Below are positions 2,201 to 39,063 of a stretch of DNA of 64,000 bases, piece by piece (position 1 is the first letter of the stretch; every line of letters starts with the position of its first letter). Where the stretch lies: NCBI GenBank assembly GCA_035221665.1, contig CM069163.1, positions 11,904,001-11,968,000 of the forward strand, read 5' to 3'. The notes under the pieces were generated by a model. It worked only from the letters and a program-made list of their open reading frames with translations. It had not been told where the DNA came from and did not search any database. Made by a program: the position numbers and the translations under genes. This stretch comes from Okamejei kenojei (taxonomy: Eukaryota).

Positions 2201-2223
2201 CAATTCTACGACTCTCCACCTAC

Positions 2224-3924: not shown

Positions 3925-4672
3925 CTAAAAATAAATTTATAAAATTATAAACGCTCAGTAATCAAATTCTAGGAAAACAGCAATAGGTTGCAATTTTGAA
4001 GAATATATATTGACAACACTGCAAAAGACAACAACTTGAAAGCTGTCATAATACTCACTGCAGTTATTGAATAGCACGCAAAGTCCTTTACTCAGAAAGC
4101 ATCCCAAAGCAAATGAGATTGAAACTAAAGCAACATCTCCCTATAATTTTCTGTCATAAAGTGCACCAAGTGATGTATAGTTATGCATAAATAATGTCTG
4201 TAAAATCCATCACATTCATTTACTGCAGTGTAGACAGATGTTTAGTTAATTATCCCATGCCATAAACCGCCTTCAGGTAACAAAAATGTGACAAAAATCA
4301 AATTTTCAACAATTAGGAAACATTGAAGAACCTGTATTTTCTGTAAAAAACACCTCCTTTAGTGGAAAAGTGCTGACAACATAATACCAAGAATTCCTGC
4401 TATTATGCTGGGTTCAGATGGAGTTGAGAGATTGGACTCGTTTGACATTCATTACCTTGTTATAAAACACCCGGCAGACATAATTATCCTGCTGACAACA
4501 CAGGCCAAAGAACAAAATAGTTTTACAGCAACACAAAAAGTGCCATCACAAAGTACAGTATTTATCAAACCACCAAAAAGCATTGATAATTAAAGGCATT
4601 ATATAAAAACCCTTCTAAAAGTATTCAGCAATTAAGCCTTTAATTCTATTTTACATCTTCTGAGCCACGTAC

Positions 4673-4867
4673 CCTGAGGAGCTGATCCTTGCTGTTAATT
4701 GTGTCCAAGAGTTCCTCAATCTCCTTTTCATGCTCTGAGCTCAGCTTCTTCCTCTCTGCCCAAGCGTTCTCCAGCATTTTCTCCTGTACCTTTAAGCGCT
4801 GATTCAAATGTTCAGCTAGGTCCTTGGTGCCACAGTGAGACTGGCTCAGCAGCGTGTTTGTCATCTC
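4673..4867 (-). CDS. CDK5RAP2: Exon 18 (EMTNTLLSQSHCG...SKDQLLR)
   Basis: 195 nt, phase 0/0, cag/gtacgt. Confidence 0.92.
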
Positions 4868-5639
4868 CTGAATTTGGAAACAAAAATAAGGGGATAAAGA
4901 TCAAGCCAGAACTCTATCAACTGCCCGTCTCCTTCAAATCAGAACAAATAATTAATGCAACTGTGATAGTACATTATCTTCCAAGGATTGAATAGCTGTT
5001 TGAACATTATGTTTTTGCACTGCACCAAAACACTGGAAACATCGGATTTATGCCAATTGTGGCAGCAAGTAGCACTCTTGCATCTCAAGTTCACAGGTTG
5101 TAGATGCAAGTATACATGTAGAAGCAATCCGAGTGTTAAAATCTAGGTGGTACTGAGAGCGCAGGGGGGCAGATGATGCTGAAAATGCAGGGACACCCAT
5201 ATTGCTGGCAGAAGAGGCATTAAACAAGACACTCCACTAAGTCTTTAAGGGCACACATTCACTACACTATTATTATTTCAGAGCAGGGATTTACCCCAAT
5301 GGCCTGAGAAATATTGATCTCTGAATTAACATTAGTAGAACAGAATTCGTTACATTCACAAAGTTACCAGTGAGAGGTTGCTATGGGCAGGCAGGTGGAC
5401 ATTTTCTCTAATGCAGAAAGCAGATGATGCAGAAAGCACATTTTCAGAATCACTGAGAGATCAAAGCAGGGAAAGGCCCAATTACAAAGAAATTCTAATT
5501 TAAAAAAAGATTTACTGATAAGATCTGGTTACAGCATTTTCAAAGTAAAATGTAGCAGCATGAACAGCCAAGTTATAATTAGTCATATCATTCATTTTCA
5601 TTTCATCATGCAGGACCTGCATTTTTCAACTTCACCATT

Positions 5640-7160
5640 TCAAGGATCTTCAATGGAATTGCGAAGATAAATGCATAGCTGGAGAGAAGAGGACTTCACT
5701 TTCCTGGGGCAATGGGACCCGTGCAGGTTAAATGTATTTGGGAGTACAAATACATAGCTCCTGAAAGTGGCATCCCAGGTATAAAGGTGGTAAAGGCAGC
5801 TTTTGACACGATGGCCTTCATCAGTCAGGGAAATGAATATAGAAGTTAGGACATTACACCACAGTTAGTTGTACAAGATACTGGCGAGGATGACTTTGAA
5901 TATTGAATGCAGTTTCCTGCTCCAGGAAAGATACCATAAAGCTTGAGAGTGCAGAGAACATTTACGAGGATGTGCCAGGAGTTGAGGCTTTTGATGGCCT
6001 GAGCTATAGGGAGAGGTTGAGAGGTTAGGACTTTATTCCTTCGAGCGCAGGAGGCCGAGGGGGTGATCTCATAGATGTATAAAATGACGAGGAGAATAGA
6101 TAGAGGATAAATGCAGTCTTTTTCTCCCAAGATAGGGGATCAAGAACTACAGGACATAGGCAAAGGTAATTGTTCTGTGCTGTACAAGCCTATGACTAAC
6201 TTTCTTAACACACTGTTCAAGCCCAAAGACGACTGCCTAAAAAGGCAGACCACAGGGTATCAGTGGGAGGAAAATGAAATACCTCAATGGAAAAGGATAT
6301 TACCTAAAATGAGTAAAAAAAACAGCAAAATGGAGAAGAACGAATTTCAAAGGACGAGTAATAATCTACATGGCAGGAAAGACTGTAACTGGAATAGATT
6401 GTCTTTGCTTTTAAAAAGAGGAGCAAATGTTGCAGGAAACATAAGAGGAAGTTGAAAAAAGGAAATAGGTGATAGAGGTAAAACCAAGCAGCAAACAGAA
6501 AACAGAAGCTCCAAGTATTCCTGTCATATGAACAGGATGTGGGCTGTCAGAGTAGTGGACTGATGAGAAATTGGGTAAAAAGGAAAATAATCTACTCCGA
6601 GTCAACGGCTGCGTCTGAAATGCTAAATTAGTACTTGATATCAGTTTCTTGATGATGGTATTAAAATTTGATTCATAGGTACTAAAAAAGCAAGCTGTCC
6701 GTAAAATAGATCAATCATCCGCTTCAGTTTGGATAACATTCTAGGCTGCTGAGGGGAGGAAGGAGGAAATTGTGATGAATTGCTCATAATTTTCAAAAAA
6801 TGTCTTCCGTTTGGGAAGTGGTGAATTAAGCAATGGAAAACTGCAGATGTTCAATCTTTGTTCGAAAAAGGCTTCAGGGATAAACTCAGTAACCACAGAC
6901 TGAGGTCAGCTCAACGTCCACAGTGGTGGAAGTTCCAGAAACGGTAAAACACGGACAGAATTAGTTGTCACTTGAAAAGGTTTGGATTGATTCGAGAAAG
7001 CCAACATGGATTTATTACAATTGGTCAATCATGAGGTTTTTTTCAAGTAAAAGAAGTTTAATGGGGTGGAATACAAATTTTGCAGTATGGGGGATTTCAA
7101 AAGGCATTTGAAAAGGTGCCATATAAGGTTTGAATTAATTTCAAAATGGATGCAATAAAA
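5640..7160 (+). mobile_element. Degenerate CR1 fragments
   Basis: Remnants of the ORF2 RT and C-terminus (gaaagccaacatggattta; gatttcaaaaggcatttgaaaaggtgcc). Confidence 0.6.
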
Positions 7161-7164
7161 GAGC

Positions 7165-7660
7165 AGCACAGTGGCACAGGTGGTAATGCTACTAGCCCAG
7201 AGGCAAGGTTTGATCCTCAATGTCGATATGGAGCTTGCATGCACTCCCTGTGATTGCAAAGGTTGCCTCCAGATTTGGCACTTTCCTCCCAAGTCCAGGT
7301 TTGTAGGTTAATTAATTGGCCTCTGTAAATTGCCCTCTGAGTAGAGAGTGGGTGCAGAAGTGAGAGAACATAGAACTAGTATGAATGTGTGATCGACGGT
7401 CATTGTGGACTTGTAGGTAGACACAAAACTCTGGAGTAACTCAGCGGGACAGGCAGCATCTCTGGAGAGAAGGAACGGGCGACCTTTTGGGTCGACCTGA
7501 AACATCACCCATTCCTTCCCTCCAGAGATGCTGTCTGTCCCGCTGAGTTACTCCAGCATTTTGTGTCTACCTTCGATTTTAACCAGCATCTGCAGTTCTT
7601 TCTTAGTCATCATGGACTTGGCAGGCTGAAGGACAATTCCACGCTGACATTTTTAATCGA
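7165..7660 (+). mobile_element. tRNA-derived SINE interrupted by a Penelope-type foldback insertion
   Basis: ggcacaggtggta...ggtttgatcc head and gtttgtaggttaattaattggc core; same family as 14130 and 25050. Confidence 0.65.
7414..7605. mobile_element. Penelope-terminus foldback element with 15-bp TSD
   Basis: Inverted arms ~7415-7490 and ~7497-7572; TSD gtcat(tg/ca)tggacttg at 7399-7413 and 7606-7620. Confidence 0.75.
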
Positions 7661-7882
7661 TCAAGAGAGGCTGCAGCAGCATAGAAAGAAAATTGGGTAA
7701 GAAAAAGGAAGCAGCATAATACTGAAACTGATTATCAGAATCGAAACAGTTCTATGCGTGCAGAAGAGAAGGCTGGGCAGTCAGGCCAGCTGGAATGCCC
7801 CGCAGTGGAGCCTTTACAGACTCAACTTGCACAATGTCCCTCTTCCATGCTCGTGATCAACTTTCATTTATAGATCAATTAC

Positions 7883-8062
7883 CTCCAAACTGTCAGCCTT
7901 TTCTTTAAGGGATTGCTGCAGCTGTAAAATAACAGCATCCTTTTCACGGAGTGCCTGCAGTTGACTGTCTTCCAGCTCTTGTTTCAATCTTTGCAAACTT
8001 TTGCACGTATTTACAAAATGTTGCAGCTCTATGTCTTTTTCTTTAATCGTACCATCCAGACT
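7883..8062 (-). CDS. CDK5RAP2: Exon 17 (SLDGTIKEKDIELQHFVNTCKSLQ...KADSLE)
   Basis: 180 nt, phase 0/0, aag/gtaatt. Confidence 0.92.
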
Positions 8063-8734
8063 CTTCAACACAAACAAGAAAGGAAAACAAATGGATTAAT
8101 CTGAGGGAGAAACTTTATTGGTATAATTATACCTGTCATGACAAACTAAACATGAATCCATTTAGAATATAGCACTCGTTTTCAACGCTGTCTCCAAACT
8201 CTGCAGATTTGGGAATATGAATCAAGTCAATGTGGTTATAATCAACCATTATTAGTTGGAGACAACGATGAAGGGACTGACCACAATACTGATCATCAAA
8301 ACATTAAATGTCTTACCAAGGACTTAAACCATCGCTCTTAAAAAGCAGGCCTCAAAAACTAACAAACATTCTAATCCCACTTTATTCTTAATAAAAAAAC
8401 ATTATTCTTTATAAAATAAACTTTCAAATAAATGCTACAATACTCTAAGCTGACACCCACATGTCAGATTATTTCACGTGTAACTAAATACCTTTTGGGA
8501 GTACATTATAGTTTTAAACCTGTTTTTACCATTTTTGCCTAAAGTACATGGATGCCTATAGTAGACTGTCTCAGCATTTCTTGAGCCTGTCCTTCATCCT
8601 CGAGTACTCACAGGGTTTAATCCTGCAAGTACATCCCAACATAGATCTAGTATGAACGTGTGATCGATGGTCACACGCCTGAGCGTGTCCACATCTCTGC
8701 ATCATTTACAATTTATCATTGTGTCATAAATCAT

Positions 8735-8975
8735 TACATAGCACAAACACAGTCCTGGTGGCCTTCCGGTCCACGCCAACTAAGTTGCCTAACCAAGCTA
8801 GTCCCACTTGCCTGTGCCTAGCCCATATCCATCCAAATCTTTCCTATCCACTACCCAAGTGGTTTTTAAATGTCATGGCTGTACCCACAGCCACCACTTC
8901 CTCTGGCAGCTTGTTCTATGTGCGCACCATCTTCTGTGGAAAAACTTGCCACTCAGGTCCTTTTAAATCTTTCTG
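8735..8975 (-). mobile_element. CR1 3' end fragment
   Basis: Reverse complement of a typical CR1 3' terminus. Confidence 0.6.
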
Positions 8976-9218
8976 TTGAAACCAATGTAGGCTCTCCCGA
9001 CTAACATCAGGTCGCTTTATGTACAAATGTTAAATTTCAATCATGTGAAATTTTCTATATTTGCCTAAAATAACTGCGATAAAGGTTTGTATCACAAATA
9101 ATTTGTTTTAACAAAGCAAAATTCTAGCAGAGAAAGTTGCTTCAGGCAGCTTTGAAGCTGATGCACAAAGCAGCTTATCTGTACTGACAATATTTTCAGC
9201 CTCAGTAAAAATGCTTAC

Positions 9219-9356
9219 ATTAATTGTTTCTTCATGACTGGCAAGCAGACTCTTCAGTCGATCAAAATTGTGGTCCTTTTCTCTCAAAGCTAGATGTAGC
9301 TGTTGAATCTCGTTTTCCTTTTCATCAATAGCTGCATGTTTTTGATCAATGGCTTG
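9219..9356 (-). CDS. CDK5RAP2: Exon 16 (QAIDQKHAAIDEKENEIQQLHLALREKDHNFDRLKSLLASHEETIN)
   Basis: 138 nt, phase 0/0, aag/gtaagc. Confidence 0.92.
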
Positions 9357-9709
9357 CTTTAAATGGTAAAGAGGAATTTAAAAAAAAGGTACATTACGGT
9401 GAATGTGAAAAACAAAGCAATAAATTTACACTGAAACAAAATTAAAATATTTTAGTGCAGATACTGTGATGGAGCTACAGCATACTTCCAGATAGCATCA
9501 GCACACAAGCACTTTTATGCAGGGGTGGCACAACATCACAGGATCCCAGCAGAAAAAAAAAATGTCCCCTCCTTAAATTAGCAGTGCAAAATAAATTTAT
9601 ACCAGATGCACCAGAATGAGATAGTGAGCTCTTGGTCTGGATGTCTCAGTAATACTTCACAGACATCCAATGAAATATTTGTTTTAAATGGCAAAACCAG
9701 TCTGTTTGA

Positions 9710-10120
9710 ATTTGAATTTGCCATGGAAATGGGTCCTTCAGCCCAACTCATCCATGACGACCAAGATGCCCCATCTATGTTAGTTCCATTTGCCTGTATT
9801 TAGCCCACAGTCCTCTATAAACATTTCCTATCCTTGTACCTGTCCAAAAGGTCTGTTAAATATTGTTATATACTTTCCTCTCTTCTGTACGTAGTTCCAC
9901 AGACCCACCACCCTCTGTGTGAAAAAACAGCCTCTCAGGTTTGTATTAAATCTTTCCCCCCCTCAACTTAAACCTATGCCCTTTGCTTCTTGAGGATCCT
10001 ACCCTGGGAAAAAAAGTTACTGTGGAAAATTCACCCCATCCATTCCCCACATAATTTATATATATCCCTATAAAGTTGTATACATCCCTATAAGATCATC
10101 TCAGCTTCCGGAGCACCAAG
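9710..10120 (-). mobile_element. CR1 3' end fragment
   Basis: cccaccaccctctgtgtgaaaaa and related CR1 3' motifs on the minus strand. Confidence 0.6.
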
Positions 10121-10219
10121 GAATATAGTATGGTATATTGCTGCAATATATTCTGATAAATATTATTTTTATGGTATCAATGTTGAATTTGCCGATATAG
10201 AATTCACTGCAGGGAATAC

Positions 10220-10336
10220 CTCAAGAGCCCCATCTTTCTCCCTCAGACGATCACGTAGTTTAGCAATCAAAACATCTTTTCCACCAGGACTCCGATCTCC
10301 TGCTTGTGGAACTCCTTTTAGCAGCTCTGTGTATTC
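10220..10336 (-). CDS. CDK5RAP2: Exon 15 (EYTELLKGVPQAGDRSPGGKDVLIAKLRDRLREKDGALE)
   Basis: 117 nt, phase 0/0, tag/gtattc; myomegalin-like peptide. Confidence 0.9.
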
Positions 10337-11390
10337 CTAGTGTGGGTGGAGAGAAAGGAAGAGGGGAAAAAAAGTGATCAGTACTAAGATTTTGCAACTA
10401 CAAGCAAAAAAGCTGAGCTGTACTTGCTTTTAATTATTGACCCCTGCTAGTTACTGATGCCTCTTCGCAGTGTCAATTTGTTTCCAATTTGTTTCCAAGG
10501 ATTGCATCCAAAATAGGTCTATGTTATATCACACGGGGGGGGGGCAATTCAAGTAGCAGCAGCATTGATGTGAAGGTTGAAGGATCAAATCCCCACTGAC
10601 AGACTTGAATATCAAGATGGAAACACTAACTAAAGTTTGCACAGCTTGCTTCTCTCCCAGTGATAAATTCATGCATTATGTGTAAAATGTGATGTCCACT
10701 AGCAAGACAAAACCTTGGCCACATGTCAATAAGTCAATTAAGGTATTAAACTTTTTAATAGAGATAGCAACTGATGTTTCTCTCGATGAATTACACACTG
10801 CAGCTTATTGCAATTTTCCCTAATTATGATTTGGTCATAGTTAGGTGTAATGTATAATTTGATATATGTGAAAGCAAGTGGTGAAGCAAGTAAGAATTTT
10901 AAAAGTGGCCCAAGGGTGCAAAAGAGATTCTCAATTACACACACACAATAGGGACCACAAGGCAAAAGTGTATACAAAGTTAATGGAGGCCAAATGTATA
11001 TTGACACAATTTTATTTTCTCATTCTTAAAATAACATTGCACATTCTACCCCTGTAACATTTTATTAATTGATCATTCTGATCAAAATGCTAATGGTATT
11101 ATCTAGTTGGCTGGATATCATTGATCAGATTGGCAGAAATGTTTTTTTCAGTTCTGCTCAAGTATGGACAGCTATGAATCAATTCTAACAACAAAAGGTA
11201 AAGACTCAAGTTTACAACTCAGTAATATATTCAACTGATAGCTTAAGATGTGAAGGCCATTACTGACACATTATTCACAAGCGATTCTTCAGATTGTTTT
11301 CTTTACAAAAAGTTAATTATACAACTTTCATGACATTTCCAATTTTATCCAATTAGATTATTTTTTCACAGTAGCGTTGCTGCCCCACAC

Positions 11391-11561
11391 CTGAAGTAAT
11401 TTATCTTTATAGTTTAAGCCGTCTGTTAACCGCTCAATAACCAGTTCCAGGCTTTGCAGCTTCTGTTTGTTCTCCGTTAGCAGAGACTGGCGCCGGTGCT
11501 CCATGGCATGCTCCTTCTCTGCCAACTCAGCACCCAATTTCTGAATGTGGTTTTGAATATC
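11391..11561 (-). CDS. CDK5RAP2: Exon 14 (DIQNHIQKLGAELAEKEHAMEH...KDKLLQ)
   Basis: 171 nt, phase 0/0, cag/gtgtgg. Confidence 0.93.
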
Positions 11562-12029
11562 CTGCAGATAGCGAGACAAACATTTTATTTTAATTTTTTT
11601 ATTGAGACAAAGGAAGTGTCATAACAGAAACAAAATAGGGACTCTTGCATTGTAAAACCATATGCTGTTAGCAAAAGGATGAACTTAAATAGGAAAATAG
11701 AAAATTTACATTGCTGTTAATTTAGATTCATTTGAAAATTTGAAGCTAGACTACTTAGATTGTTGAATGAGAATCTTTTCTCTCTATGCATTGAAATAAA
11801 GATAGTGTTCCAATGTAAAATGGATATCAGAAAAATGTTTTTATCATGTTTTGATGAATGAGAATAAGGAAAAAGTCTCACATTCTTCTGCCACACTTCT
11901 AAGTGAGGAATGACGACATTATGTCAGTAATCCATCATTAACTGTGTCTTTGGAAGTTATTTAAATATGAACATTATCTAAGTGCTCACAAGGAGAAAAC
12001 ATGCTCAAAGCTTTAATGCATAGTATAAA

Positions 12030-12200
12030 AAGGACACAAAACGCAGGAGTAACTCGGTGGATTAGGTAGCATCTCTGGAAGATACGGATAGGCGATGTTT
12101 TGGGTTGCAACCCTTCTTCAGTCCAATTGTAGTTGGGATGGGGTAGTGGGGTGAAAGGGGTCTTGTAAGTGATAGGTGGACACAGGTGAGGAGGGCTTTA
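12030..12200 (-). mobile_element. Penelope terminal fragment with a degenerate hammerhead core (12094-12121)
   Basis: Same family as 41655-41790; core reads CTGAAGA...AAAA (G12 lost). Confidence 0.6.
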
Positions 12201-13357
12201 TTATTGTATTCCTTTCCAGGTTAAAAATTATGAGTTTGTTCATCCTTATCTATTTATTGTCCTGGATATTGTAGAAGTGTTGAACACACATGGGCAGAAT
12301 TAATGTGACTAATTTCCTTTTAGGAAAGCCGAGCATTAAAGGAGATATTCGCGATACGAAGCAGACGTTGAGAAAAAGATTGAAATATCATGAATTTAGT
12401 GCTACCTTAAAAAAAATATTAATGCAATTTTTAAAAAAATTACAAAAAAGAATCACAGCTAGGGCTCAAAAAATAGATGAGACTGGAATCTTAAATATTT
12501 GGGGAGAGGCGATTTGGAAAATTAGGTACCACGAGTCCCTAAGCAAGAATAATCACTGGGAACATTTCCAACTTATTTTCCTTGTATCCTGGCTAATATT
12601 TTAATCATCTTTTGGAAGTCCCATCTAGGCACATATCCTGCACAAGCTGATGTGTGCAAATTGAAGACTTGTAGAATTTCTGTGTAAATTATATTCAACT
12701 TGTTTTTGTGTTTTGTCAGAGTCCACGTGCCTGTGATGCTGCTGCAAGCAAGATTTTCATTATACTTATATTCCACCATCCTTGTGCATATGACAATAAG
12801 ATCTACTTAATTTGAAATTGTCTATCACCTTTCCCTACATGACAGAAAAGCTTGCTGGATATTCCAAGTGTGTGAATGGTATGGAGGAGGTGCAATTCTC
12901 TCCTCAACATCTTTTAGTTTTTATGGCAACTTGTAAAATTTCATTTGAATTTAGATGAAACTAAAACATTACAAAGTAATATAAATTGAAATCTGAAGAT
13001 ACAGCAAAGTAGGTAGGTCCAGTAAATGTAAAAAGGTAACACAGCTCATTGCGTGAATTGAGTTTGACATGCACATTAACTCAGATAATTTGGGGAACCA
13101 TTAGAAAATATTTGAAATAATATTCACTTTTTAGGATACTTATCCAATTGGAATTATTTTTAAACCCTCAATTACAAAAATATCTGACAAAACAGCTGGC
13201 TATATTCATACAATAAGGATAGGATTTCAAAGTAATTAATTGGCACATGATACACTTGGGGACTTTGGGAAAAACCCCAGAAAATGTGGGGATTTTCATT
13301 ACATTTGTTATGGCGACAGTGAAAAATAACTTAAAATGCTACAGAATGGACACCAAC

Positions 13358-13576
13358 ATTAATGGTCTTGTCACTCTTTCTTTTCTGTAGCTGTAGTTCT
13401 TCCACCTCCTCTTCCAGTTTAACCTTTGTCTCAGTCAGATCTTTCAGCTCCTGCTCTTGACGGCTCAATGCTCTTTGCAACTTCTGGACCTCCATTGCTT
13501 TTCCATTGCAATCGGCATGGAGCTCTGCGAGCTCAGTCTCTTTCGCAGTCATGAGGCTTTGATATTCTTCTGCTCC
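13358..13576 (-). CDS. CDK5RAP2: Exon 13 (GAEEYQSLMTAKE...KSDKTIN)
   Basis: 219 nt, phase 0/0, cag/gttggt. Confidence 0.93.
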
Positions 13577-13665
13577 CTGAAGACCAAAAAGTCACAACAT
13601 GAAATTGTTCACTTAAACTAAAACATAGGATCACCTGAGCAGATTTAAATAGGTTTGCCACTTAC

Positions 13666-13758
13666 CTGAAATTTCTGCAGCTGTGCTTTATGTATTGAGT
13701 CTCTTGCTTTAGCCAGTGCATTATCACGCTCTTCAATTTCTTGGTAAAGCTCCTTGAT
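13666..13758 (-). CDS. CDK5RAP2: Exon 12 (IKELYQEIEERDNALAKARDSIHKAQLQKFQ)
   Basis: 93 nt, phase 0/0, cag/gtaagt. Confidence 0.93.
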
Positions 13759-13853
13759 CTGATTTTAAACAGTGCAAATAAAGCAAAATATTTAAAATAT
13801 TATTAGCGAACCCAGACTATAGCATAAATTATTCACAGTAGAGTGACCCAGAC

Positions 13854-13973
13854 CTCTTTATCCTTAGTCTTCAGAGCCAAAGTCAGTCCTTGAATGGTTT
13901 TATCTCGTTTCAAACTATTCTGCTTCTCTGCAGCCAGCTCGTGGACCTTTTCATTAGCCTGTCCTTGAAGAGC
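13854..13973 (-). CDS. CDK5RAP2: Exon 11 (ALQGQANEKVHELAAEKQNSLKRDKTIQGLTLALKTKDKE)
   Basis: 120 nt, phase 0/0; matches EKKNSLKRDKAIQGLTMALK. Confidence 0.95.
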
Positions 13974-14488: not shown

Positions 14489-14623
14489 CTCATTTGCAGC
14501 ATCTGCTTCCTTTAGCTTTCCTTGCAAAGTACAGTTTGCAATTTCAGAAACTTCAAGGTCAGCTTTGAACTGCCTGGCTTCCACCTCTAACTGTCCCAGC
14601 CGCCTCTGTTTCTCAACCAGGTT
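14489..14623 (-). CDS. CDK5RAP2: Exon 10 (NLVEKQRRLGQLEVEARQ...EADAANE)
   Basis: 135 nt, phase 0/0, ttgcag acceptor after a poly-T tract, gtacaa donor; coiled coil. Confidence 0.85.
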
Positions 14624-18787: not shown

Positions 18788-19843
18788 CTCGGGTTTGAAA
18801 GAAGAGTCGTGTTCTTGCGCTGCCCATACTTCTTGCTCGGACGTTGCACTATCAAAGTTATCGCTTTCCTGCAAATCTACTGCAAAGCTGTATCTCTGCA
18901 AAGGTCTCCTTGCACAAAATGCCACACGCCTTGGTATCTTGCTTTTTGAGAAAAATGCCACTGGTTTGTACTCAACATACTTAATTTCCTGAATTGCATT
19001 TGCAATGTAATGTCTCAACGAGGGAGAGTCTTCAGTCAAATCTTTGTGGTTAAGTGTGGATTTCAGCTGAAATGTTTCAGGTTTTTCAATTTTCCAATCA
19101 ATCCTGGTGGAATTTAATAATGGTGTGCTTGCAGTTTCCAGGTTGCTGGTGCAAAGGCGATTGGCCAGCTTCCCCACAGGAGTCGGACTTCTTGATACTA
19201 AATCGAAGCACAAACTCTGTGACTGGCTTCGTGAGCCTGCATTTCCTGTTAGGCCTCCCTGCGTGGCCCATCTGGGGGTGGAACACACCAAGTCACAGAA
19301 TAAATCAGCTACTTTCACCGAGTCAGAACAGAGGCACAGTCTCTTCTTGTGTCCTCTGGAGAAAGACCGCCAGCAGTTTGAGCAGCCCAAGATTTCCTTG
19401 CTGCTCGGTTGCGGCTTCCAAAATTCAGATAAAATAGATTCATCCTGGAGAAGCAAGCTGTACTGCAAAGAGGGTGGATTTTCAATTTCAGGGGAGAGAC
19501 TTACTTCCTTATTACAAGTTCCTTTGGAACTGTCATTATACCTGAAGTACAAGTGCACAATACATTGAATTAGCTGGTCTTTCTCTGCTGTCAACATCTG
19601 TAGCCTCTCGCTGGAAACAGTTTTAACACGAGCAATAACGATATCATATTTGATTACCTTCTCCAATATGAAGGCACATTTACTACACAAGAACTCTCCT
19701 TGGCCATCACGCCGAATAGTGTAACCCAATATATAGGAGAGAACAATTTGTAATCTTCTTTTGCTACAGGTGTTGAAAATCCAGCGACGTTGATTACCTT
19801 GCAGATTGTTGCAACATATTCGACAAAGGCCCTTCATATCCAT
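18788..19843 (-). CDS. CDK5RAP2: Alternative first coding exon (352 codons), homologous to the myomegalin MMG8/EB-MMG N-terminal exon; CxxC...CxxC domain and SKIP EB1-binding motif
   Basis: Intact ORF MDMKGLCRICCNNLQGNQRRWIF...RDGQGEFLCSKCAFILEK...ERLQMLTAEKDQL; SKIP at 18932-18943; phase-0 donor GAG|gtagtt at 18788/18787. Confidence 0.9.
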
Positions 19844-19989
19844 TGATGTCCAACCTTTTTAAAAGCACAAAATCTGCTCAGCAGAAGACTGATCAGCACA
19901 CTGATGTAACTGATGAACAGTTGAAAGCCCCTTTAGTTGCGTTTTACAATTCCCTGTCCTCATGAATTCCAAAAACAAAGGAAAGCTGC

Positions 19990-20700
19990 ATCAAGAGTTG
20001 CTATGGTGATCATCGGCGGTTTCCAAGGGACGAGGCAGCACAATTTTTTTCCCACAAACTTCTCAAACAAAAACCATTGTTTGGCAATATTTGAAAGTCA
20101 CCTCTTTTACTGGGTTGAACTTAAGGATTAAATCCAATTACCATCCTGTGAGAAATTCTTCCTCATTTCAATAATGATACAGACACAAGCCGACAAATAT
20201 ACAAGCAGTGGCCGTTAATCTAGTGGCATTGCAAGCTGCTGTTTTCCTACCGAAAAAGGTTTCTTCATTGAATGTAGACCACAGCCTGCAACTGAAAGTA
20301 CTGGTGCGCCCAGAACTCCCCATCACTTTGCTTTACAAAAAGCCGAAATGAGATGATAAACCATGATCACCATTTCCTGAAGAGCTTTTACCACTTCTAT
20401 GATCCAACACAGATTCCAAAATCGAACTTATTCCACTCTTCCATTAGATACACGGCTCTCTCTTTCCTCAGCACACGATTACAAAATATTTCAGGAAGTA
20501 CAAGCTAAGCAGTGTAATAGTTGCTGCTGTCTGCAGCTTGCACGGAACGTCTGACTTTTTTTTTGCCACGTGAACTTTCAAAATGACGTCTTGTGGAGCT
20601 AGGCCTCCTTCCTATTTCACCCGTCGAGTGACTGTACGCTTAATTTAGAAAAACTACCAGTTTCCTGTTTGTGACTTCCACAGTGAGCACATTCTAAAGC
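19990..20700 (-). promoter_or_regulatory. Candidate internal promoter / 5' UTR of the alternative first exon
   Basis: Repeat-free region upstream of the ATG at 19843 with locally retained CpGs; E-box CACGTG (20567-20572), CRE-like TGACGTC (20584-20590), X-box-like GTTGCTATGGTGAT (~19997-20010). Confidence 0.45.
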
Positions 20701-23383: not shown

Positions 23384-23437
23384 CCGAATTTCCTTTTCAA
23401 AGCGATTTCTCTCATTTGCAAGTTCATGTCGAAGTGC
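23384..23437 (-). CDS. CDK5RAP2: CDK5RAP2 exon 9 (ALRHELANERNRFEKEIR)
   Basis: 54 nt, phase 0/0, ccttcccttctcacacag acceptor, gtaatt donor; resembles human AAQMEHQKERNSFEERIQ. Not in the ORF track. Confidence 0.88.
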
Positions 23438-25829: not shown

Positions 25830-25986
25830 TTCAATTTCACCAGCTCTTTTCAGAGCAGTTTCAGTAAGTTCCTGAACTTTATTGTAAGGATCCACGTTAC
25901 TGTCCTGATTCTTGGTCTTTTCATTTTGAAGCTGATTAATGAGAGCATCTTTGCTTTTGATGGTCTCACTCAACTGCTCAATTAAC
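25830..25986 (-). CDS. CDK5RAP2: CDK5RAP2 exon 8 (LIEQLSETIKSKDALINQLQNEK...GEIE)
   Basis: 157 nt, phase 2/0, tag/gtaagt. Confidence 0.92.
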
Positions 25987-26331
25987 CTAACAAATTTGAA
26001 GCACAAAAAGATCTGTTCACATAGACAGTTAACCAAGTGTTGCAGAAATTGCCAAATGCTTTAAATATTGTTCTAAAGATAAGGTTTCTTATATTGTGAA
26101 CTATGCTTTCAGTGGAACCATCACAGCATTAAAACTACACAGTACTACTGTATTATACATAATGATTGAGCACCGATAGAAAAATAGCAAAGAAGTTATT
26201 TTTTGTAAAGTAAAACGTGTATTATCTTTCTAGCAAACCCGCAGTGCATTGCCAAATTCAAAATAATGTAACACGACAAAAAGAAAATTTGTGTGTTTTC
26301 ACATTGATAAACCAAAGTACTTAGTACTGAC

Positions 26332-26495
26332 TGCTCAGTTTCCACGAGGCTCTTGCATTGTTCCGGGGATGAAGGCAATCCCATACGGTTTTGTTTAAGT
26401 GACAACATCTGCTTTTCTAGGTTCATACTCCGCATTTTCTCTTGCTCAGCAATAGTAGCCATCTTTTCCAATTCTGCCTGGGTTGTTTTAACATC
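26332..26495 (-). CDS. CDK5RAP2: CDK5RAP2 exon 7 (DVKTTQAELEKMATIAEQEK...)
   Basis: 164 nt, phase 0/2, aag/gtcagt; matches DVTAAQAELEK. Confidence 0.9.
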
Positions 26496-26817
26496 CTTAT
26501 TTCAGAGAAAAAAAAAAAGTTTTTTTCTCCCCAATAACTTCACAATATATACACATTTCCTGTCCAAAAATGCATTTGCACATGTGATTGAGACCCCGAT
26601 GTCCATTGTGGGGTTGAAAAAGCAAAATGGTTTTTAAAACCTCTTCTCCAAATTGAAAACAATGGCACTAAACTGTCAGGAATAAAATTTCCTGTTTCCC
26701 CACTGAAAGACCAAATGCCTCAAAAAGGTTGCTTAGATATTCCACAAAATAATTCAGGCAATTTGGGCCAAAGCAAGCCAGCAATTTTTTTTTTCCAGAG
26801 GAATAAAAACAGGAAAA

Positions 26818-28022
26818 GCAGGTAAAGCAGTGGATTTTGTCTATATGGATTTCAGTAAGGCCTTTGACAAGGTTCCCCATGGAAGGTTGGTTAAGAAGGT
26901 TCAATCTTTGGGTGTTAATGGCGGAGTAACAAGATGGATTCAACAGTGGCTGAATGGGAGATGTCAGAGAGTAATGGTGGATGGCTGTTTGTCAGGTAGG
27001 AAGCCGGTGACCAGTGGGGCGCCTCAGGGATCTGTGTTGGGTCCACTGTTGATTGTCATGTACATCAATGATCTGGATGATGGGGTGGAAAATTGGATAA
27101 GTAAGTATGCAGATGATACTAAGATAGGTGGTGTTGTGGATAATGAAGTAGATTTTCAAAGTCTAGAGAGATTTGGGCCATTTGGAAAAGTGGGCTGAAA
27201 GATGGCAGATGGAGTTTAATGCTGTTAAGTGTGAAGTGCTACATCTTGGCAGGCAAATCAAAATAGGACGCACATGGTAAATGGTAGGGAATTGAGGAAT
27301 GCTGTGGAACAGAGGGATCTAGGAATAACTGTGCATAGTTCCCTGAAGGTGGAATCGCATGTAGATAGGGTGGTAATGAAAGCCTTTGGTGTGCTGGCCT
27401 TTATAAATCAGAGCATTGAATATAGGAGTAGGGAAGTAATGTTAAAATTGTACAAGGCATTGGTAAGACCAATTCTGGAGTATGGTGTACAATTTTGGTC
27501 GCCTAATTATAGGAAGGATGTCAACAAAATAGAGTACAGAGGAGATTTACTAGAATGTTGCCAGGGTTCCAGCAACTATGTTACAGAGAAAGGATGAACA
27601 AGTTAGGTCTTTATTCTTTGGAGCGCAGAAGGTTAAGGGGGGACTTGATTGAGGTCTTTAAAATGATGAAAGGGATAGACAGAGTTGACATGGATAGGTT
27701 TTTCCCATTGAGGGTAGGGAAGATTCAAACAAGAGGGCATGACATGAGAATTAAGGGACAGAAGTTTAGGGGTAACGTGAGGGGGAACTTCTTTACTCAG
27801 AGGGTGGTGGCTGTGTGGAATGAGCTTCCAGCAGAAGTGGTGGAGGCAGGATCGATTTTAACATTTAAAAGTAAAGTGGATAGGTATATGGACGTGAAGG
27901 GAATGGAGGGGTATGGTCTGAGTGTAGGTAGATTGGACTAGGGGAAAACAAATGGTCGGCACGGACTGGAAGGGCCGAGAGGGCCTGTTTCCGTGCTGTA
28001 ATTGTTATATAGTTATATGGTT
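26818..28022 (+). mobile_element. Young 5'-truncated CR1 LINE with 16-bp TSD
   Basis: RT motifs YMDFSKAFDKVPH, PQGSVLGP, YADD, with frameshifts; tail ttatatggtt; TSD aataaaaacaggaaaa at 26802-26817 and 28023-28038. Confidence 0.92.
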
Positions 28023-28212
28023 AATAAAAACAGGAAAATGCACGAGGACCATCAATGGTGTCTATGGCACAACTTGCTCTATGAAAGCAGTCCAATCAAA
28101 ATGAACCCTGAAAACTTATAGCTGGACAAATTGCAACAAAGATAAGCTTTATAATCTACCTTTTTTTTTTTTAAATGAGTTTGGGGAAATCAAACAATTT
28201 GAGGAACAGCCA

Positions 28213-28283
28213 TGGTCTGATTGAATAGCAAATGACGGTTTGGCCTCATTTGGTCTGATTGAATAGCAAATGAGGGTTTGGCC
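28213..28283. repeat. Tandem duplication, period 38
   Basis: tggtctgattgaatagcaaatga(c/g)ggtttggcc occurs twice. Confidence 0.85.
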
Positions 28284-28712
28284 AACTCTTGATCCTAGTT
28301 CTCAGGAGAAACCTGAAACCAAGGTTTGAAGACAAACAGAAATGCAGGTGCTAGGATCTAGAACAAAATAGAACATTGGAAGAACTCCACAGGGCAAGCA
28401 GCATTAGTGCAAGCTGAGAAAGCCCTCGGCTGCTGCAGGGCCTCCTCAGTCACCCTAATCCACCTTGGCCCACCAACTGATGGCTGTTGCAGACAGAGCA
28501 TAGGTACTCAGCAGAATAGTAACCTCGTCTATGTTTGGTTTCACCAATGTAAAGGAGATAGCAGCATGAGCACTGGATGCAGTGGACCAGTTTGGAGGAG
28601 ATGTAGAGCAACCTCGGTCTGACCTGGAAAGGCTGGTTGGTAGCAATAGTTCAACTAAAGGACAATCATTACATCTCCTTCGGTTGCTGGGAAAAGTGCC
28701 ATGGGACGGATT

Positions 28713-28742
28713 GGGGTGGGGGGGGGGGGGGGGGGGGGGGGG
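28713..28742 (+). repeat. Poly-G tract
   Basis: Direct observation. Confidence 0.9.
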
Positions 28743-28998
28743 AAGATGGGGAGCTGTAGGAGTGGATACTATTTAGAAAAATGCCAATTACAAATTTGTC
28801 TCCAGAAAAAATAAAGTATCATAGATGATCTCGGCAAACTCGAGGGCAGAGAAGAAGTTGGTGGACAAAATAGACTCGCTTTTAATACCTTAAGCCTTAC
28901 ATTTTTTTTAAATACTGAAAAGTTAACCACATCAATAACTGATGTATTTAAAAACGCTAATCTTTCTCTGATCATATAGAAATACAGAACAGATTTAC

Positions 28999-29122
28999 CT
29001 CCTCCAAAAGATGGATCTGGTCACCCAGAAGTTGTTTCACCTGAAGCACCTCCTTCCGATTTGCATCTTTCATGCGCTGAATTAGTGCATCACTGTTGCC
29101 AGCCAAACTCTCTACAGCTTTT
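28999..29122 (-). CDS. CDK5RAP2: CDK5RAP2 exon 6 (KAVESLAGNSDALIQRMKDANRKEVLQVKQLLGDQIHLLEE)
   Basis: 124 nt, phase 2/0, cag/gtaaat. Confidence 0.95.
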
Positions 29123-31734
29123 CTGTTTAAGCAATTTTAACAGCACATGGTTAAAGACTTTAGCTACATATTTTTTTTTTAAATTCTGAGAATTTTAAAT
29201 TCTAAAAATTTATATTTTTAAGAGCTATCATTGGTCACAACATCCAGGGGCCAAATGTTAACTGAATTCCTTTACCATGTGCCCCAAACCTTGTTTACCA
29301 GTATCTAACCCAGTAAATCAACATCAGAATCGTTTAATGACTACACTTATCTGGGTCTTTTTCCTCTGCTTCATTATTTCCACAGAGTTTTTGGGCAAAT
29401 AGCATGATTTGGTTTATTATTGTCATGCGCACTGAGATCCAGTGAAAAACTGTGTTTTGTGTGCTGTTAAAGTAAATTATACCACACAAGAATACCTTAG
29501 GTGGTGCAAAACAAAAAGCAAATGCAGTATGTATGGCTTTACAGTTTATAGCAGAAGTACAGTTAAAAAAAAGGACCACAATAAGGTAGATTGTAAGATT
29601 GGGAATTAATTTGGACTGTTTAGTAGTCTGATAACAGCATGGAAGAAGCTATTCTTGAATTTGGTGGTACGTGCTTTCAAGCTTTTGAATCTTCTGTTCG
29701 ACAGAAGGAAGAATGATTGCATATGTGATCCTTGGTTGTGTTGGCTGCTTTGCTGAAACAGCATGACGTGTAGATGGATTCTTGGGCAGAGCAGCTGCCA
29801 AACTAAGCTCATGTTAGGATGCTTTCTACAGTGCATCTGTAGAAACTGGTAGAAACTGGCAAGATATGGTGCATCTGCATTGAAGGCTGCCCTCTCACTC
29901 TCTCTTCGCACCCCAGTCCCACCATGCCTCTTTACACTAGGGACTTTCCATAAATTTTATAATAACAGAAGAATACAAGCAGAGTACACCATTGTTACCA
30001 ACCTCAATTCAACAAAGACTATTTCAATGAAAGCATTTTACTGACTGAAACAGCATTTAAATCCTAGCATTGTTAACTGTATCAACTCCTTCACAGAAAT
30101 CCGTTTCTGAACACTAATGTTTGCAAGTGTGCATTAGATCATCCCCTAAATAAGCCAACAGTATGAATTACTGACTGGACACAAATGGGTCCTGACAACA
30201 TATGGAGTAGTACCCAAACCATCGGAGTGGATTTACAATAGATATAACTGCTCCTCCTGTAATAATTTTATGGGCTTAAACAAACAATAGATAAAATAGA
30301 GATATTCATAATTTCATATAACCTCAGCTCACTTATTAATTATTCTTTAACTTTTGTCTCAGAGTAATTTAAGAGGATATTTGGTTATTTTTAAGAATTC
30401 TTGAGTCAAAAGAATATGGGTTGGGCACTGACACATGGGGACTAGCTTGATTAGGCAATATATTCAGCATGGATGGGTTGAGCCGAATGGCCTGTTTGTA
30501 TGCTGTACAAGGTCTATGGCTAATTCAAATGGCAATAGTACTACAATAACTACTTTAGAGAGTGTTGACAGAGAAACTAAAATTTAACGAAGGACAGCAC
30601 AGCTATGAAAATGTAAAAAAAGTCAAATCCTTACATTTCTGAAGAACCACTAACAAGTTAATTTGATCTTCCAAGTCACAAGATAGTTTATGACCAGTGC
30701 AGTTTATTTTAAAACAGCAAAACAAGTTTCCCCATATGTACCATGCAGGAGGGACATCAATAACAGACCACCTGATCAAATTGTGCAACATGTCACAGCA
30801 TGACTAAATCAGTACAGCATGAACTCGAACTAGCCTAGCTATTAGTAGCTTTCTGCTTGACAAGATCATAAATTTCTCGATGGGAGGTAAATGGAACAGA
30901 TTAACTGTGAGCCAACTATCCAATGATCACAGCTTTTGTAACACCCATTCCCCCTCCACAGAATCACAGCAAGTTTATAGCACATTGCACTGGCGCCAGT
31001 TGCAAAAGCTTAAAAATCTAACTTTACCACCCAAACTGCTATGTATCTATTTGGTGACCCTTGATCGGACATTTACCTTGCACTAAATGTTATTCCCTTA
31101 TCACGTATCTATACACTGCAACTGGCTTGATTGTAATCATGTGCTATCTTTCTGCTGAATGGATAGCATGCATCAAAAGCTTTTCAATGTACCTCGGTAA
31201 ACGTGACAATAAACTAAACTGAAACAAGGACTGTAGCCATTTGCTTTCTCCGATTCAAACGCTTTTTGTCAAGCATTAACTCAAATACGAAAGCTTTCTG
31301 TCAAGTCTTAAAATGTTGCTTTGACCAAGTTAACAAATAGCTCAAACTACATAAATACTACTGAGAGCACAAACCACAACTAATCTCAGCACTGCTGAGC
31401 CACAAGGGGAATTTTGCTGAAGAATTTGGCAGCGGATTTGGCTACATGATGCACGCTGAAGCAGGAAGTGACTGTTGCACTTACCAGAAGATACAAAAAC
31501 AAAAACAGCTCTCCATCAATGATACATCACAGCATTGGTCCAACGTGCGACCAAATTCGAGAACATTTCAGAAATAAAAGTAGTCAGAAAAATTGTTTCA
31601 GGTTCTATCATAAGAAAATCAATGACATTTGGCAAATCAAAAATAAATGAAATATGCACATGCCTAAGACTTTGCCACGGGCCTTTCAAAATCTGTTTCA
31701 ACTGTTTGACAAAAACAAAATCACCAGCACTTAC

Positions 31735-31811
31735 GAAGCTTTGACAAGCAGCTCCTGTTTCTCCTTTAATTCATACTTTAAACTCTCCAGTTCTACTTTG
31801 AGTTCAATGTT
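31735..31811 (-). CDS. CDK5RAP2: CDK5RAP2 exon 5 (NIELKVELESLKYELKEKQELLVKA)
   Basis: 77 nt, phase 0/2, tag/gtaagt. Confidence 0.95.
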
Positions 31812-33326
31812 CTACAAAAACAAAGTTCACCAAATAAAATTAATGCAACAGAAATGAAACTGTAAACAGTCACAAATTGTTATATTTAATTTAAAAACAG
31901 CTTTCCTGCTAATAACACGGACTATAACCAATTCAAAATGTCTGACTTTAGGCATTGTGACAAGTTGATTACAGTTAACCATGAAATGCAAACGCATGCA
32001 AGACCTTTTCTCTGGAATACTAGCTGATTGGCACCCTGGCTCACAGAATCAGCCATTTAGATTTTTTTAATTAAGACAATAAAAACCAGTAATCAATAGA
32101 ATACAGCAAATGAATACTGTGGGAACATTTAAAAAAAAAATCATTCCTCAGAACATCCATCTAATTAAAAGAAATACACAACTGCCTGCCTTTACAAATA
32201 AACTTGCCACAGATTCTACTTAACCTGCTGCTTTTTTTCTAGTATTGCCTTTACATCAGATTTCTAGCATTACCAAAAAGGTGCGTTGCATTTAGAATGT
32301 GCCCTCTAATCCTAGACTCCAAAATTTGAAGTTGTGTGAAGTGGATTAGATTAAAGGACTGTGGGGAAAGAGTGCCACAGGTATCCAGGGGCACATTCCG
32401 AGGCGAGACAAGGATTGCAGTGGGGTGCTGTCAAGCTAAACAGTGGAATCAGGGTTAGCTTCATTAAAAAAAAAGTTGGTGATACATTTTTTTTCCCCCC
32501 GGTTTTAAAGTAATGCCACATATTGTGCCAAAGTAATGCCAAAACTCTTGTATAAAGACAGCCCATTAGCAGGTGCACTATCATAAATTTGTTAAACAGT
32601 CCCAATATTTTGGCCAAGCAAACAATGTTGATCAAGGTGAAAACCGCGTAATTTCCTTCATCTTCTAGAAGGGAGACCAACGGCTTTTGTGATCTTCTCA
32701 AAGAACACTGGTACTGTATCCTGAGGATTTTCTAGACTAAAGTCAGGCACTGGAAAGAGTGGTATGTTTGAACGACAACAAACCCCAATGTCCAGTCACA
32801 GTGGTCTGCTTTCAAGGTTGCGAAGCATTGCAATGTTAGCCTCATTATTGATACGGTGATTTATTTGAAATCAAGCTCACAACTATTGTGGTGGCATTGG
32901 CACATTACCTTTGATTAATAGTTCAGACTTAGTCCAGTATCCGATACATTATTGCTGCACTCATCAATGCAACTAGAGACAGACACCCCTAACTAGCATC
33001 TTATAAATGGTGACATGGCCAATTCAAATGACGAGTCATCCACCTCAAGTATATCCGGAGTTTGAACTACTGCAGCTGGGCAATCGCAATGCCCATAACC
33101 CCAAGTTAATTTTGCTTCTTTCCTTACAGATAAATCTTAGTGCACGATACCATTTGTTGTGTTATTTCATTTTTTTAGCATCACTAATCTTTTTAAACAA
33201 ACAGTTTACTGAAGCTATTTATTTGAATAGAGTGTTAGTGGAAAAGGGGGAACGTCAAATCTCCTTTACCAGCAAGCTTACATGATTTGCATTTCAAGGT
33301 TTCATCAGTAATTTAAAATCTCTTAC

Positions 33327-33437
33327 CATCTTAAATATATCCTCACTACCATCATCAAATTTCTGCTGCATCCGCTCCTCAAGGAAGTAGATGCGAAGTT
33401 TGAGATTGAAATTCTCCTTCTTGAGATCAGTGATTTG
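33327..33437 (-). CDS. CDK5RAP2: CDK5RAP2 exon 4, CM1/gamma-TuNA core (QITDLKKENFNLKLRIYFLEERMQQKFDDGSEDIFKM)
   Basis: 111 nt, phase 0/0, cag/gtaaga; canonical centrosomin motif 1. Confidence 0.97.
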
Positions 33438-34329
33438 CTGAAAGATAAAAATAATTACGAGACATGTCCGCAGGTATAGTACATCCTCCAATCCATCCCA
33501 AAACAAGCTCTGACATCCTTCTGCATGATGCACTGTCTAGTCACCACTGAGTTATGGCTGACAAACCCGTAGCCCCGGATACGTCATCTCGGAGGTTAGT
33601 TCAGGAAAGTGGTGCCATGGTGAAAGATCAGACATTATCTTAAGATTCTTACAGCCTGGAAACAGGCCCTTTGGCCAAACATACCCATGTTAACACATGC
33701 CCCATCCACACGAGCCCCACTTGCCCATACGTCGCCCATAACCCTCTAAACCTATCCTATCCGTGCACTTCTCCAAATGTATCTTAAATGTCATGATAGT
33801 ATCTGCCTCAACTATCTCCTCTGGCAGCTTGTTCCATATACCAACCACCTTGTGTAAAAATTGTGTTCATGCCTGTACTCGGATGCGTTCTCTGTCCACA
33901 TTATATGACAGTCTACCTTTAGATTCTTTCTTTCCAAATTATATTGTATATCTTTATTATCATTCTGAGTATTTGCATACCCAGAGGAAAACGAAAAAGC
34001 GTTTCTCAACCAATATCCATTCAGTGTGGTAAAAAATAAATGGAAATAGAGAATAAAAGTACATATATCACGAGTTCCTTTCCATGCAATAGTTGACGGC
34101 CAAGAACCAATTATTGTGCAACTACCACTTGTAGCTTTCAAGCCCAAAAATGATCCAAATTCAGATTTTGTCTTCAATCCACGTTAAGACACTACCCCCA
34201 ATTCTGCACGCTCTTATTTTGTGCGTCAAACGTTTTAAAATGACCATCTACAGGCTCCCCTCCTAATCAGGAGCAATGTGTGGGTCTCCAATCAGATGAC
34301 CTAGCTAAGTGGCCAAGCTATTAGATTAT

Positions 34330-35800
34330 AACATAGAACAGTACAGCACAAGCTCAGACCCTTCAACCCACAACGTCTACATCGAACATGCTGCCATTAT
34401 CTACCAACGTGCAATCCATATCCTTCCATTCCCTGCATATCAATACCCCTATACAAAAGCCTCTTAAATGCCATGATCGCATCTGCCTCCACCACCACTG
34501 GCAGTGCGTTCAAGACACTCACCACCCTATCTAAAAAGATATCCTTTAATAAAAAAGTTTATCTTTTAAAACTTTGGCCTTCGCACCTTCAAGCTATGAT
34601 CTCTAATATTTGATTTTTCCATCCTGGTAAAAAGGATGGAAAAATTGTATATACTTCCCTCAGGTCTCCCCGAAACCTCCAGTAATCCAGCAAAAAACTG
34701 TCTAAGTCTGCCCAACCTCACCATGTAGCTAATATCCCCTAATCCAGGCAACATTCTGGTAAACCTCTGCATCCTTTCCAAAGCCTCTTCATCTTTCGCC
34801 ACCTCTAACAGGATCCCAATTCTAGACACATCTTCCCATCACCACCCCTTTCTGCAGAGAACGTTCCCTCTGCAACACCCTGGTTAACACATCCCTTCCA
34901 ACCCAAACCACCTCTCCCCAGATATCTTCCTCTGCAACCGCAGGAGATGCAACACCTGTCTCTGTACCTCCTCCCTCAACTTTGTCCAGTCACCCAACAG
35001 TCATTTCACGTTTGGCAGAGGTTCACTTGCACTTCCTCCAACCTCATCTACTGTATCCTTTGTTCAAAATGTGGACTCTTATACATCGGCGAGAACAAAC
35101 GTAGACTGAGCGATCATTTAGCTGATCCCCATCGCTTAGTCTGCCTCGACCTACCCGATCTCCTGGTTGCTCAACACTCTCCTTCCCATTCCCACATTTG
35201 CCATTCTGTCCTAGGTCTCCTCCATCGTCAGAGTGAGGCTAAACAGAAATTGGAGGAACAGCATTCAAATTTTGCTGGGCAGTTTATAACCCAGTGGTAT
35301 GAATATTGAATTCTATAACCTTATCTAACTTCAAGCATTCCCTGCATTCCCTCTCATCCCTCCCCCACCCAAGTCACACCAGCTTTGTTTTCTCACCCAA
35401 CTGCTAACAATGGCCCGTTTCCTTTACTTTTCTGCATCTTTCATTCATTGTTTTATATTTATCTACATCATCTATATCTCTCATTTCACTTCCCTGTGAC
35501 TTTCAGTCTGAAGAAGGTCTCAACCTGAAATGTCACCCATTCCTTCTCTCCAGAGATGCTGCCTGTCCTGCTGAGTTGCCACAGCTGTTTGTGTCTATCT
35601 TCTACATCTTTCCCGTAATACTCCAAATGTGGCCTAAATAAAGTCCTATAAAGTTGCATCATGACTTCCTGATATTTACACTCAATGCCTGGATGCATGA
35701 AGGTAAGCTTACCAAATGCCTTCTTTACCACTCTATCTACAGTGTTGGCACATTCAGGGCAATATGGACTTGGATCCCAAGATTCCTCGGTACACCCAAT
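34330..35800 (-). mobile_element. CR1 fragment split by a Penelope insertion
   Basis: Minus-strand ORF2 C-terminal remnants (MQLYRTLFRPHLEY; LERMQRFTRMLPGL) on either side of 34798-35604. Confidence 0.75.
34798..35604 (+). mobile_element. Penelope-like retroelement 3' part: GIY-YIG endonuclease plus terminal repeat with hammerhead core
   Basis: FTCTSSNLIYCILCSKCGLLYIGE GIY-YIG signature; CTGAAGA-AGGT ctca ACCT-GAAA-TGTC at 35508-35534; flanking repeat catctttc. Confidence 0.88.

Positions 35801-39032: not shown

Positions 39033-39033
<1 letters not shown>

Positions 39034-39063
<30 letters not shown>
39034..39063 (+). repeat. Poly-G tract
   Basis: Direct observation. Confidence 0.9.

Follow-up and report, generated by a model that had tools for sequence, protein, structure and literature searches.

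The window analysed here, a 64,000-nucleotide stretch of the genome of the skate Okamejei kenojei, carries the gene CDK5RAP2 on its minus strand, and the gene runs on for about 71 kb beyond the window start. Exons were placed with CDK5RAP2 models of Rhinoraja longicauda as guides. Coding exon 1 of the CM1-containing isoform lies at 48798..48855, and exons 2-8 span 25830..43168 (exon 2, 43168-43098; exon 3, 40328-40264; exon 4, 33437-33327, the core of CM1 (PF07989); exon 5, 31811-31735; exon 6, 29122-28999; exon 7, 26495-26332; exon 8, 25986-25830). Exon 9 (23384..23437) is the last exon specific to this isoform, whereas exon 10 (14489..14623), behind a polypyrimidine-CAG acceptor, is common to both starts of the gene, as are the coiled-coil exons from exon 11 onward, whose part within the window occupies 2216..13973; all of these features are on the minus strand. 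Along the CM1 path, exons 2-12 are bounded by AG and GT, contain no stops, and show 92% identity to the Rhinoraja CDK5RAP2 model X5. Coding exon 1 measures 58 nt to its donor, 5 nt over the 53 implied by the Rhinoraja model, and is out of phase with exon 2; because it abuts a noisy satellite, the extra 5 nt are probably an assembly error.

This satellite, a pyrimidine-rich degenerate tandem array at 49096-62490 directly upstream of exon 1, has periods of 13 and 27-30 with approximately 63-77% matches, and many spurious long ORFs arise in it. Retroelement-like fragments were also observed in the introns (26737-27941, 34809-35851, and 45500-46400), which we take to be remnants of LINE reverse transcriptase or of related retroelements.

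Since nine coding exons could be placed upstream, an ORF at 18788..19843 (minus strand) falls within intron 9. The initial annotation had described it as an intact 352-codon ORF in the orientation of the gene, ending at a phase-0 donor that joins exon 10 in frame, and both statements were borne out: the translation comprises 352 residues with no stops, a GTAGTT donor in phase 0 (GT at 18787) directly follows 18788, and the ORF joined at 14623 to exon 10 and three further exons reads through 541 codons without a stop. For the composition of the flanking intron, the probability of 352 open codons arising by chance is about 5.5e-10 per start. The motifs quoted initially are all present in the translation, namely CRIC (residues 7-10), GNQRRWIF (16-23), CSKC (53-56), and the SxIP motif SKIP (301-304, 18932..18943, minus strand), which aligns with the SxLP of myomegalin and has the basic Ser/Pro context of the SxI/LP motif of EB-MMG/SMYLE-type isoforms. 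As in these isoforms, the unique N-terminus is encoded by one exon. Residues 124-316 (18896..19474, minus strand) gave a weak match to SMYLE_N (PF18615) with 20.7 bits and an E value of 4e-4, below the Pfam cut-off of 25 bits. Identity of the exon amounts to 95% with the Rhinoraja model P0136 and 47% with chimaera.

Transcription was assessed by comparing four runs (X1, X2, X5, and X9) over 13300-26600; no RNA label is on record for them, and their RNA status was taken from contigs spliced at GT-AG introns. In all four, contigs skip GT-AG introns, including the one between exon 9 and exon 10 (joint 23384-14623). An 1802-letter contig of X5 (organism A) covers 18788-20560 with 29 unplaced letters at its donor end, and a 1708-letter contig of X9 (organism C) covers 18788-20470, likewise with 29 letters left over. 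Specific to these two runs is a break of the exon-10 contig at 14624, together with an exon-9 contig that extends 29 letters into exon 10, a geometry from which we infer two upstream exons entering exon 10. X1 and X2 show no such break and cover the alternative exon in short pieces only, and the 18788-14623 joint is absent among the 15 joints listed of 95. Depths of contigs for the alternative exon and the CM1 path (33 and 34.9 in X5, 13.4 and 28.1 in X9, about 3.5 and 64 in X1, about 3 and 109 in X2) cannot rank the isoforms and hint at a variable use of the alternative exon.

Upstream of the ORF, a transcribed 5′ leader (19844..20560, minus strand) is continuous with it in the contigs, contains 12 upstream ATGs, and is unbranched over about 630-720 nt, as judged from the X5 and X9 contigs ending at 20560 and 20470, although contigs cannot reveal a transcription start site. 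The 8 leader indels listed for the X9 contig add up to its full 14 gap letters, with none inside the ORF. Among the X9 differences listed, with 93 further rows beyond the listing, the 15 that could be classed in the ORF comprise 9 synonymous and 6 non-synonymous changes. Candidate regulatory motifs were noted at 19990-20600, near the longest contig end and in the leader: just upstream of that end are what we take to be a CRE-like half-site (~20590) and an E-box-like element (~20570), while a half-site within the leader (~20005) presumably resembles an RFX X-box; a pattern search detected no X-box at the paralogs. The ORF is very probably a real first exon, and the initial view of a CM1-less alternative first exon of CDK5RAP2 gains support from the contigs, the Rhinoraja models, and the trees described below. 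CM1 itself is encoded in the upstream exons, and Rhinoraja models carry either start.

The assignment of the locus to CDK5RAP2 rather than PDE4DIP, as proposed initially, holds in several comparisons. The exon type is found in three copies in the skate genome, in the window (contig C33), on C10 (40% identity over residues 3-194), and on C4 (36%), and CM1 in two places, the window and C10, in the latter approximately 82 kb upstream of the exon. The C10 locus agrees with the myomegalin of Pristis exon by exon and, by this sequence correspondence, is a separate PDE4DIP/myomegalin-type gene with CM1. Against human CDK5RAP2, the CM1 isoform of Rhinoraja scores 677 bits and caecilian myomegalin 316. 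In a coiled-coil tree of 26 rows, from which two short cyclostome rows were left out, the window locus falls within a CDK5RAP2 group of 8 rows with support of 98/95; the trees contain no tetrapod CDK5RAP2, and human CDK5RAP2 enters the comparison through its bit scores only. In an exon tree of 39 rows, support is 100/99 for CDK5RAP2 (12 rows), 100/99 for myomegalin, and 93/92 for a third group; within CDK5RAP2, the exons of cartilaginous fishes form a sister set to those of ray-finned fishes. AU tests on 31 rows, 8 of the exon-tree rows having been dropped, rejected a grouping with the myomegalin exons at p values of 1.7e-5 for the window and 1.3e-4 for the shark-ray set. The locus thus has CM1, the best match, and the tree placement of a CDK5RAP2 ortholog, and neither trees nor AU tests group it with myomegalin orthologs. 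As to gene order, PSMD5 lies 6.7 Mb from the locus on C33, and PSMD5, a BRINP, and a NOTCH gene are found 6.7-17 Mb off; BRINP and NOTCH genes occur on C10 as well, one of each. The human neighbours of CDK5RAP2 are, as we assume, MEGF9, FBXW2, PSMD5, and BRINP1, of which MEGF9 was not identified by a laminin-EGF search.

Models in which the exon heads CDK5RAP2 were recovered from sharks, rays, skate, and chimaera in 15 clusters among 90 matches, a count made without P0194 (named myomegalin) and the hagfish cluster P0216. All 70 ray-finned matches combine the exon with CDK5RAP2, in N-terminal position in 65 and behind CM1 in 5. The initial annotation had spoken of an exon surviving in this species as a little-studied isoform: an ancestral exon has indeed been kept, although this understates its distribution, as models extend across cartilaginous and ray-finned fishes, and while no paper on the isoform was found, it is already present in automated RefSeq models. 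Many of the database entries are named CDK5RAP2 isoforms in RefSeq and others "myomegalin-like". Annotation is inconsistent in general, with exon-bearing CDK5RAP2 models named myomegalin-like, split off, or fused behind CM1. The isoform type, moreover, is already known in the paralog. Our literature search returned no paper on the exon in CDK5RAP2; Bouguenina 2017, Wang 2014, and Fong 2009, or their supplements, may treat the cysteines or the fish homologs.

In hagfish, one cluster of nine models comprises two of CM1 type and seven of exon type with a homologous joining point, and the residue at which the two starts meet is homologous among hagfish, caecilian myomegalin, and the CDK5RAP2 genes of skate and chimaera. 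Placement of the long cyclostome gene differs between the trees: the coiled coil puts it with CDK5RAP2 (95/95), the exon with myomegalin (91/87). Because of the exon tree, the AU tests, and the presence in hagfish of both starts at the homologous point, the two-start design, on phylogenetic grounds, arose before the two gnathostome paralogs separated, and the exon is very probably ancestral in origin. This agrees with the original proposal that it is homologous to the EB-MMG exon of myomegalin and older than the CDK5RAP2/PDE4DIP split. Residues 1-105, its conserved part, share 63% identity with chimaera and 46-50% with ray-finned fishes, and the exon has diverged faster than that of myomegalin (skate-catshark 61% versus 80%; skate-gar 31% versus 55%). 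No tetrapod or lobe-finned CDK5RAP2 with the exon was recognized among candidate sets of 92 (27 looked up, 24 named), 90/813, and 70/84, an absence that weighs little since the 90/813 search missed ray-finned models that the 70/84 search recovered. The same sets yielded no recognized invertebrate match, and ZAD-like invertebrate clusters in the ESM Atlas (0.87-0.91) are leads only.

Comparison with the human protein points to a loss. Human CDK5RAP2 (CEP215) is the ortholog, and CM1, the coiled coil, the internal SxLP, and the C-terminal region align with the skate gene; exon 11 maps to human residues 295-332, whereas skate residues ~300-340 have no counterpart and exon 10 gives no match to human CDK5RAP2 at E<=10. 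The human CDK5RAP2 sequences in the PDB (1893 and 1663 aa) lack both the exon-encoded N-terminus and skate exon 10, and a search of PDB sequences with the exon alignment gave no matches. On the strength of this alignment, human CDK5RAP2 likely lost the exon together with exon 10, and since the acceptor exon is also missing, this is consistent with a single deletion. In PMC3575658, the two N-termini of myomegalin are attributed to alternative promoters in all vertebrates, and CDK5RAP2 isoforms are described as resembling the CM1 form only and binding EB1 via their own SxLP. A loss in tetrapods more widely would rest on the human protein sequences, this one paper's statement, and searches of low sensitivity.

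The N-terminus of the exon is predicted to adopt the ZAD (zf-AD) fold at 19535..19831 (minus strand), comprising residues ~5-87 with a helix to 103 and cysteines 7, 10, 53, and 56. The cysteines are invariant where aligned (C7 and C10 in 57/57 rows, C53 and C56 in 58/58), and a structure model built from 58 sequences has a mean pLDDT of 87. The top 11 Foldseek rows are ZAD structures with E values of 4e-3 to 0.19, none at E<=0.001, and the top five VIA rows are likewise ZADs (Z 6.9-8.2, rmsd 2.2-3.2, 76-81 residues), compared with Z ~6 for unrelated helices. Of the 58 family members, 53 have a zf-AD match at E<=0.01, although the skate exon itself, at 20.3-22.7 bits, stays below the 28-bit cut-off of PF07776; many database entries already come with precomputed Pfam zf-AD matches. 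When two copies were modelled together with zinc, the score was 0.73 versus 0.22 for the best control, with at least 91% contact agreement and pLDDT of at least 82. The mark used for dimers was reached by 21/30 solved pairs and 0/23 single chains from microbes and by 17/29 and 0/30, respectively, from eukaryotes. ZAD domains are known to dimerise, and the dimer model may have passed because it resembles solved ones. With this in mind, we predict a zinc-binding ZAD homodimer at the N-terminus. It resembles the ZADs of Grauzone (1pzw), M1BP (7po9), Pita (7pok), CG2712 (6fp5), and ZNF276 (7ppp) in its CxxC...CxxC spacing and predicted fold, and the antiparallel helical dimer of the solved structures is also predicted for the skate exon. 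In contrast to them, the skate domain sits on a cytoskeletal scaffold, with 12-20% identity and a score below the Pfam cut-off; nor is it of the ZAD-C2H2 transcription factor type, as no C2H2 array is present and an SxIP motif and a coiled coil follow the ZAD.

Less of the initial proposal remains with regard to EB1. It had been called an EB1-binding isoform switch, but both skate isoforms carry an EB1-type motif because an SRIP is encoded in a downstream exon common to both (G000:C33 ~11,882,000), and the alternative exon adds a second one. This SRIP aligns with the SRLP of human CDK5RAP2 near residue 937, and an internal SxIP-type motif occurs in 67 of 70 ray-finned models and in lamprey. 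Six of six sampled myomegalins have no motif of this context at the aligned place, and one caecilian myomegalin has a different downstream SKLP. Judged by sequence, the switch is between CM1 on the one hand and the predicted ZAD plus a second SxIP on the other. The SxIP-type motif within the exon is likewise present in 67/70 ray-finned models. In 21 of the 70, it reads SHIP; the His occupying the x position may change the affinity for EB.

Among known systems, the closest is the EB-MMG/MMG8/SMYLE isoform of myomegalin, which likewise has one large first exon and no CM1 (PMC3575658, PMC5626540, and PMC13678657). Further similarities are the Cys-pair N-terminus, an SxI/LP motif near residue 300, and a phase-0 join to a homologous exon. 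The skate exon differs in belonging to CDK5RAP2, in its identity of only ~31-40% to the myomegalin exons, and in its faster evolution, and its product keeps the internal second SxIP missing from most sampled myomegalins. In PMC5626540, residues 1-389 of myomegalin are linked to Golgi localization, AKAP450 binding, EB3 binding via SxLP, and rescue of CAMSAP2 tethering; PMC13678657 (a review), PMC10318397, and PMC11794602 give further background on the mechanism. EB1 binding and AKAP9/Golgi targeting of the skate isoform are inferred by analogy with myomegalin as presented in PMC3575658 and PMC5626540. Given a real first exon of ancestral origin, a myomegalin-like function seems a good bet on this analogy.

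The whole reading, in which the ORF is an alternative first exon whose product would be a CM1-less, ZAD-dimerising, AKAP9/EB1-linked microtubule tether at the Golgi, is given a probability of about 0.75, a figure at the upper end of our estimate. An internal promoter near 20.5 kb would drive the exon, and the resulting isoform would not activate gamma-TuRC through CM1 while keeping the coiled coil, the internal SxIP, and the C-terminus; like its equivalent in myomegalin, it would tether microtubules at the Golgi via AKAP9 and EB1. The ancestral vertebrate gene likely carried both starts. After duplication, myomegalin would have kept both, mostly without the internal SxIP, and CDK5RAP2 of fishes both together with the internal SxIP, whereas the human gene likely lost the exon and exon 10.

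Several other explanations compete with this reading. The alternative start may be real with a drifted function, the product being a ZAD dimer that cannot nucleate and competes with the CM1 form, or a poorly translated protein, with no AKAP9/Golgi anchoring. The faster divergence relative to the myomegalin exon, the SMYLE_N score under the cut-off, a partly degenerate second cysteine cluster, the 12 upstream ATGs, which could limit translation, the SHIP variant in 21/70 ray-finned models, and the apparent dispensability of the exon in humans all speak for such drift; yet the conservation of residues 1-105 to chimaera and ray-finned fishes, the four cysteines invariant where aligned, and the SxIP-type motif in 67/70 ray-finned models make it unlikely. 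An identity of the locus as PDE4DIP, or a copying of the exon from PDE4DIP in the shark lineage, finds some encouragement in several shark and ray models of the exon type named "myomegalin" or "myomegalin-like". It is contradicted by the trees, the AU tests, the match to human CDK5RAP2, and the separate C10 locus, and must be regarded as extremely improbable, the trees and AU tests refuting it as far as the tree models can be relied on.

Two further alternatives concern the structure of the transcript. One is that the ORF forms a single-exon gene of its own inside the intron. Gar, paddlefish, and mormyrid models (P0014, P0022, and P0073) are annotated in this manner, and in skate, the frame indeed stays open for 5 codons beyond the donor, so that read-through would end at a stop at 18770. 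Against this, the X5 and X9 contigs end at 18788 with 29 letters unlike the genome, spliced models exist in 15 chondrichthyan clusters, and both paralogs of the skate genome have the phase-0 donor at the same position, which leaves a nested gene very improbable. We consider it similarly far-fetched that the exon is an internal cassette giving a CM1-plus-ZAD fusion protein, as suggested by the 5/70 ray-finned models with the exon behind CM1: contigs run unbranched for 630-720 nt upstream of the ATG, exon 9 is joined to exon 10 in 4/4 runs, splicing at the nearest upstream AG would put the ORF out of frame with the phase-0 exon 9, and Rhinoraja and chimaera models have either start, singly.

With the alternative first exon as the preferred reading, the two-promoter CM1/EB-type design would no longer be that of myomegalin alone, in contrast to the account in PMC3575658. 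For fish models of the microcephaly gene CDK5RAP2, both starts would have to be targeted, as a knockout of a CM1 exon would spare the exon isoform. The predicted ZAD also offers a testable structure for the N-terminus of myomegalin, which is described without a predicted domain in PMC3575658; no literature on a ZAD in myomegalin was found. A more tentative and, on balance, doubtful extension is that the centrosomin ancestor of vertebrates captured a ZAD as a second start, which would serve as the AKAP9/Golgi-docking module of myomegalin and of CDK5RAP2 in fishes, that the paralogs can heterodimerise via this ZAD, and that mammalian CDK5RAP2, made CM1-only by the loss of the exon and exon 10, borrows the module from myomegalin in trans. 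If this were true, human and fish CDK5RAP2 mutants need not compare.

A third paralog, si:ch73-95l15.5-like, was observed at G000:C4:186237-196046. It starts with the same exon type, followed by a short, related coiled coil, and differs from the window locus in being a separate gene with a short C-terminus and no CM1, which was not found at this place in the skate genome. A search under the name ch73-95l15.5 found no paper. Relatives of approximately 680-910 aa occur in chimaera, sharks, rays, coelacanth, lungfish, caecilian, frog, gecko, and teleosts, and short cyclostome forms exist too. In the motif of the skate C4 paralog, Cys replaces Ser.
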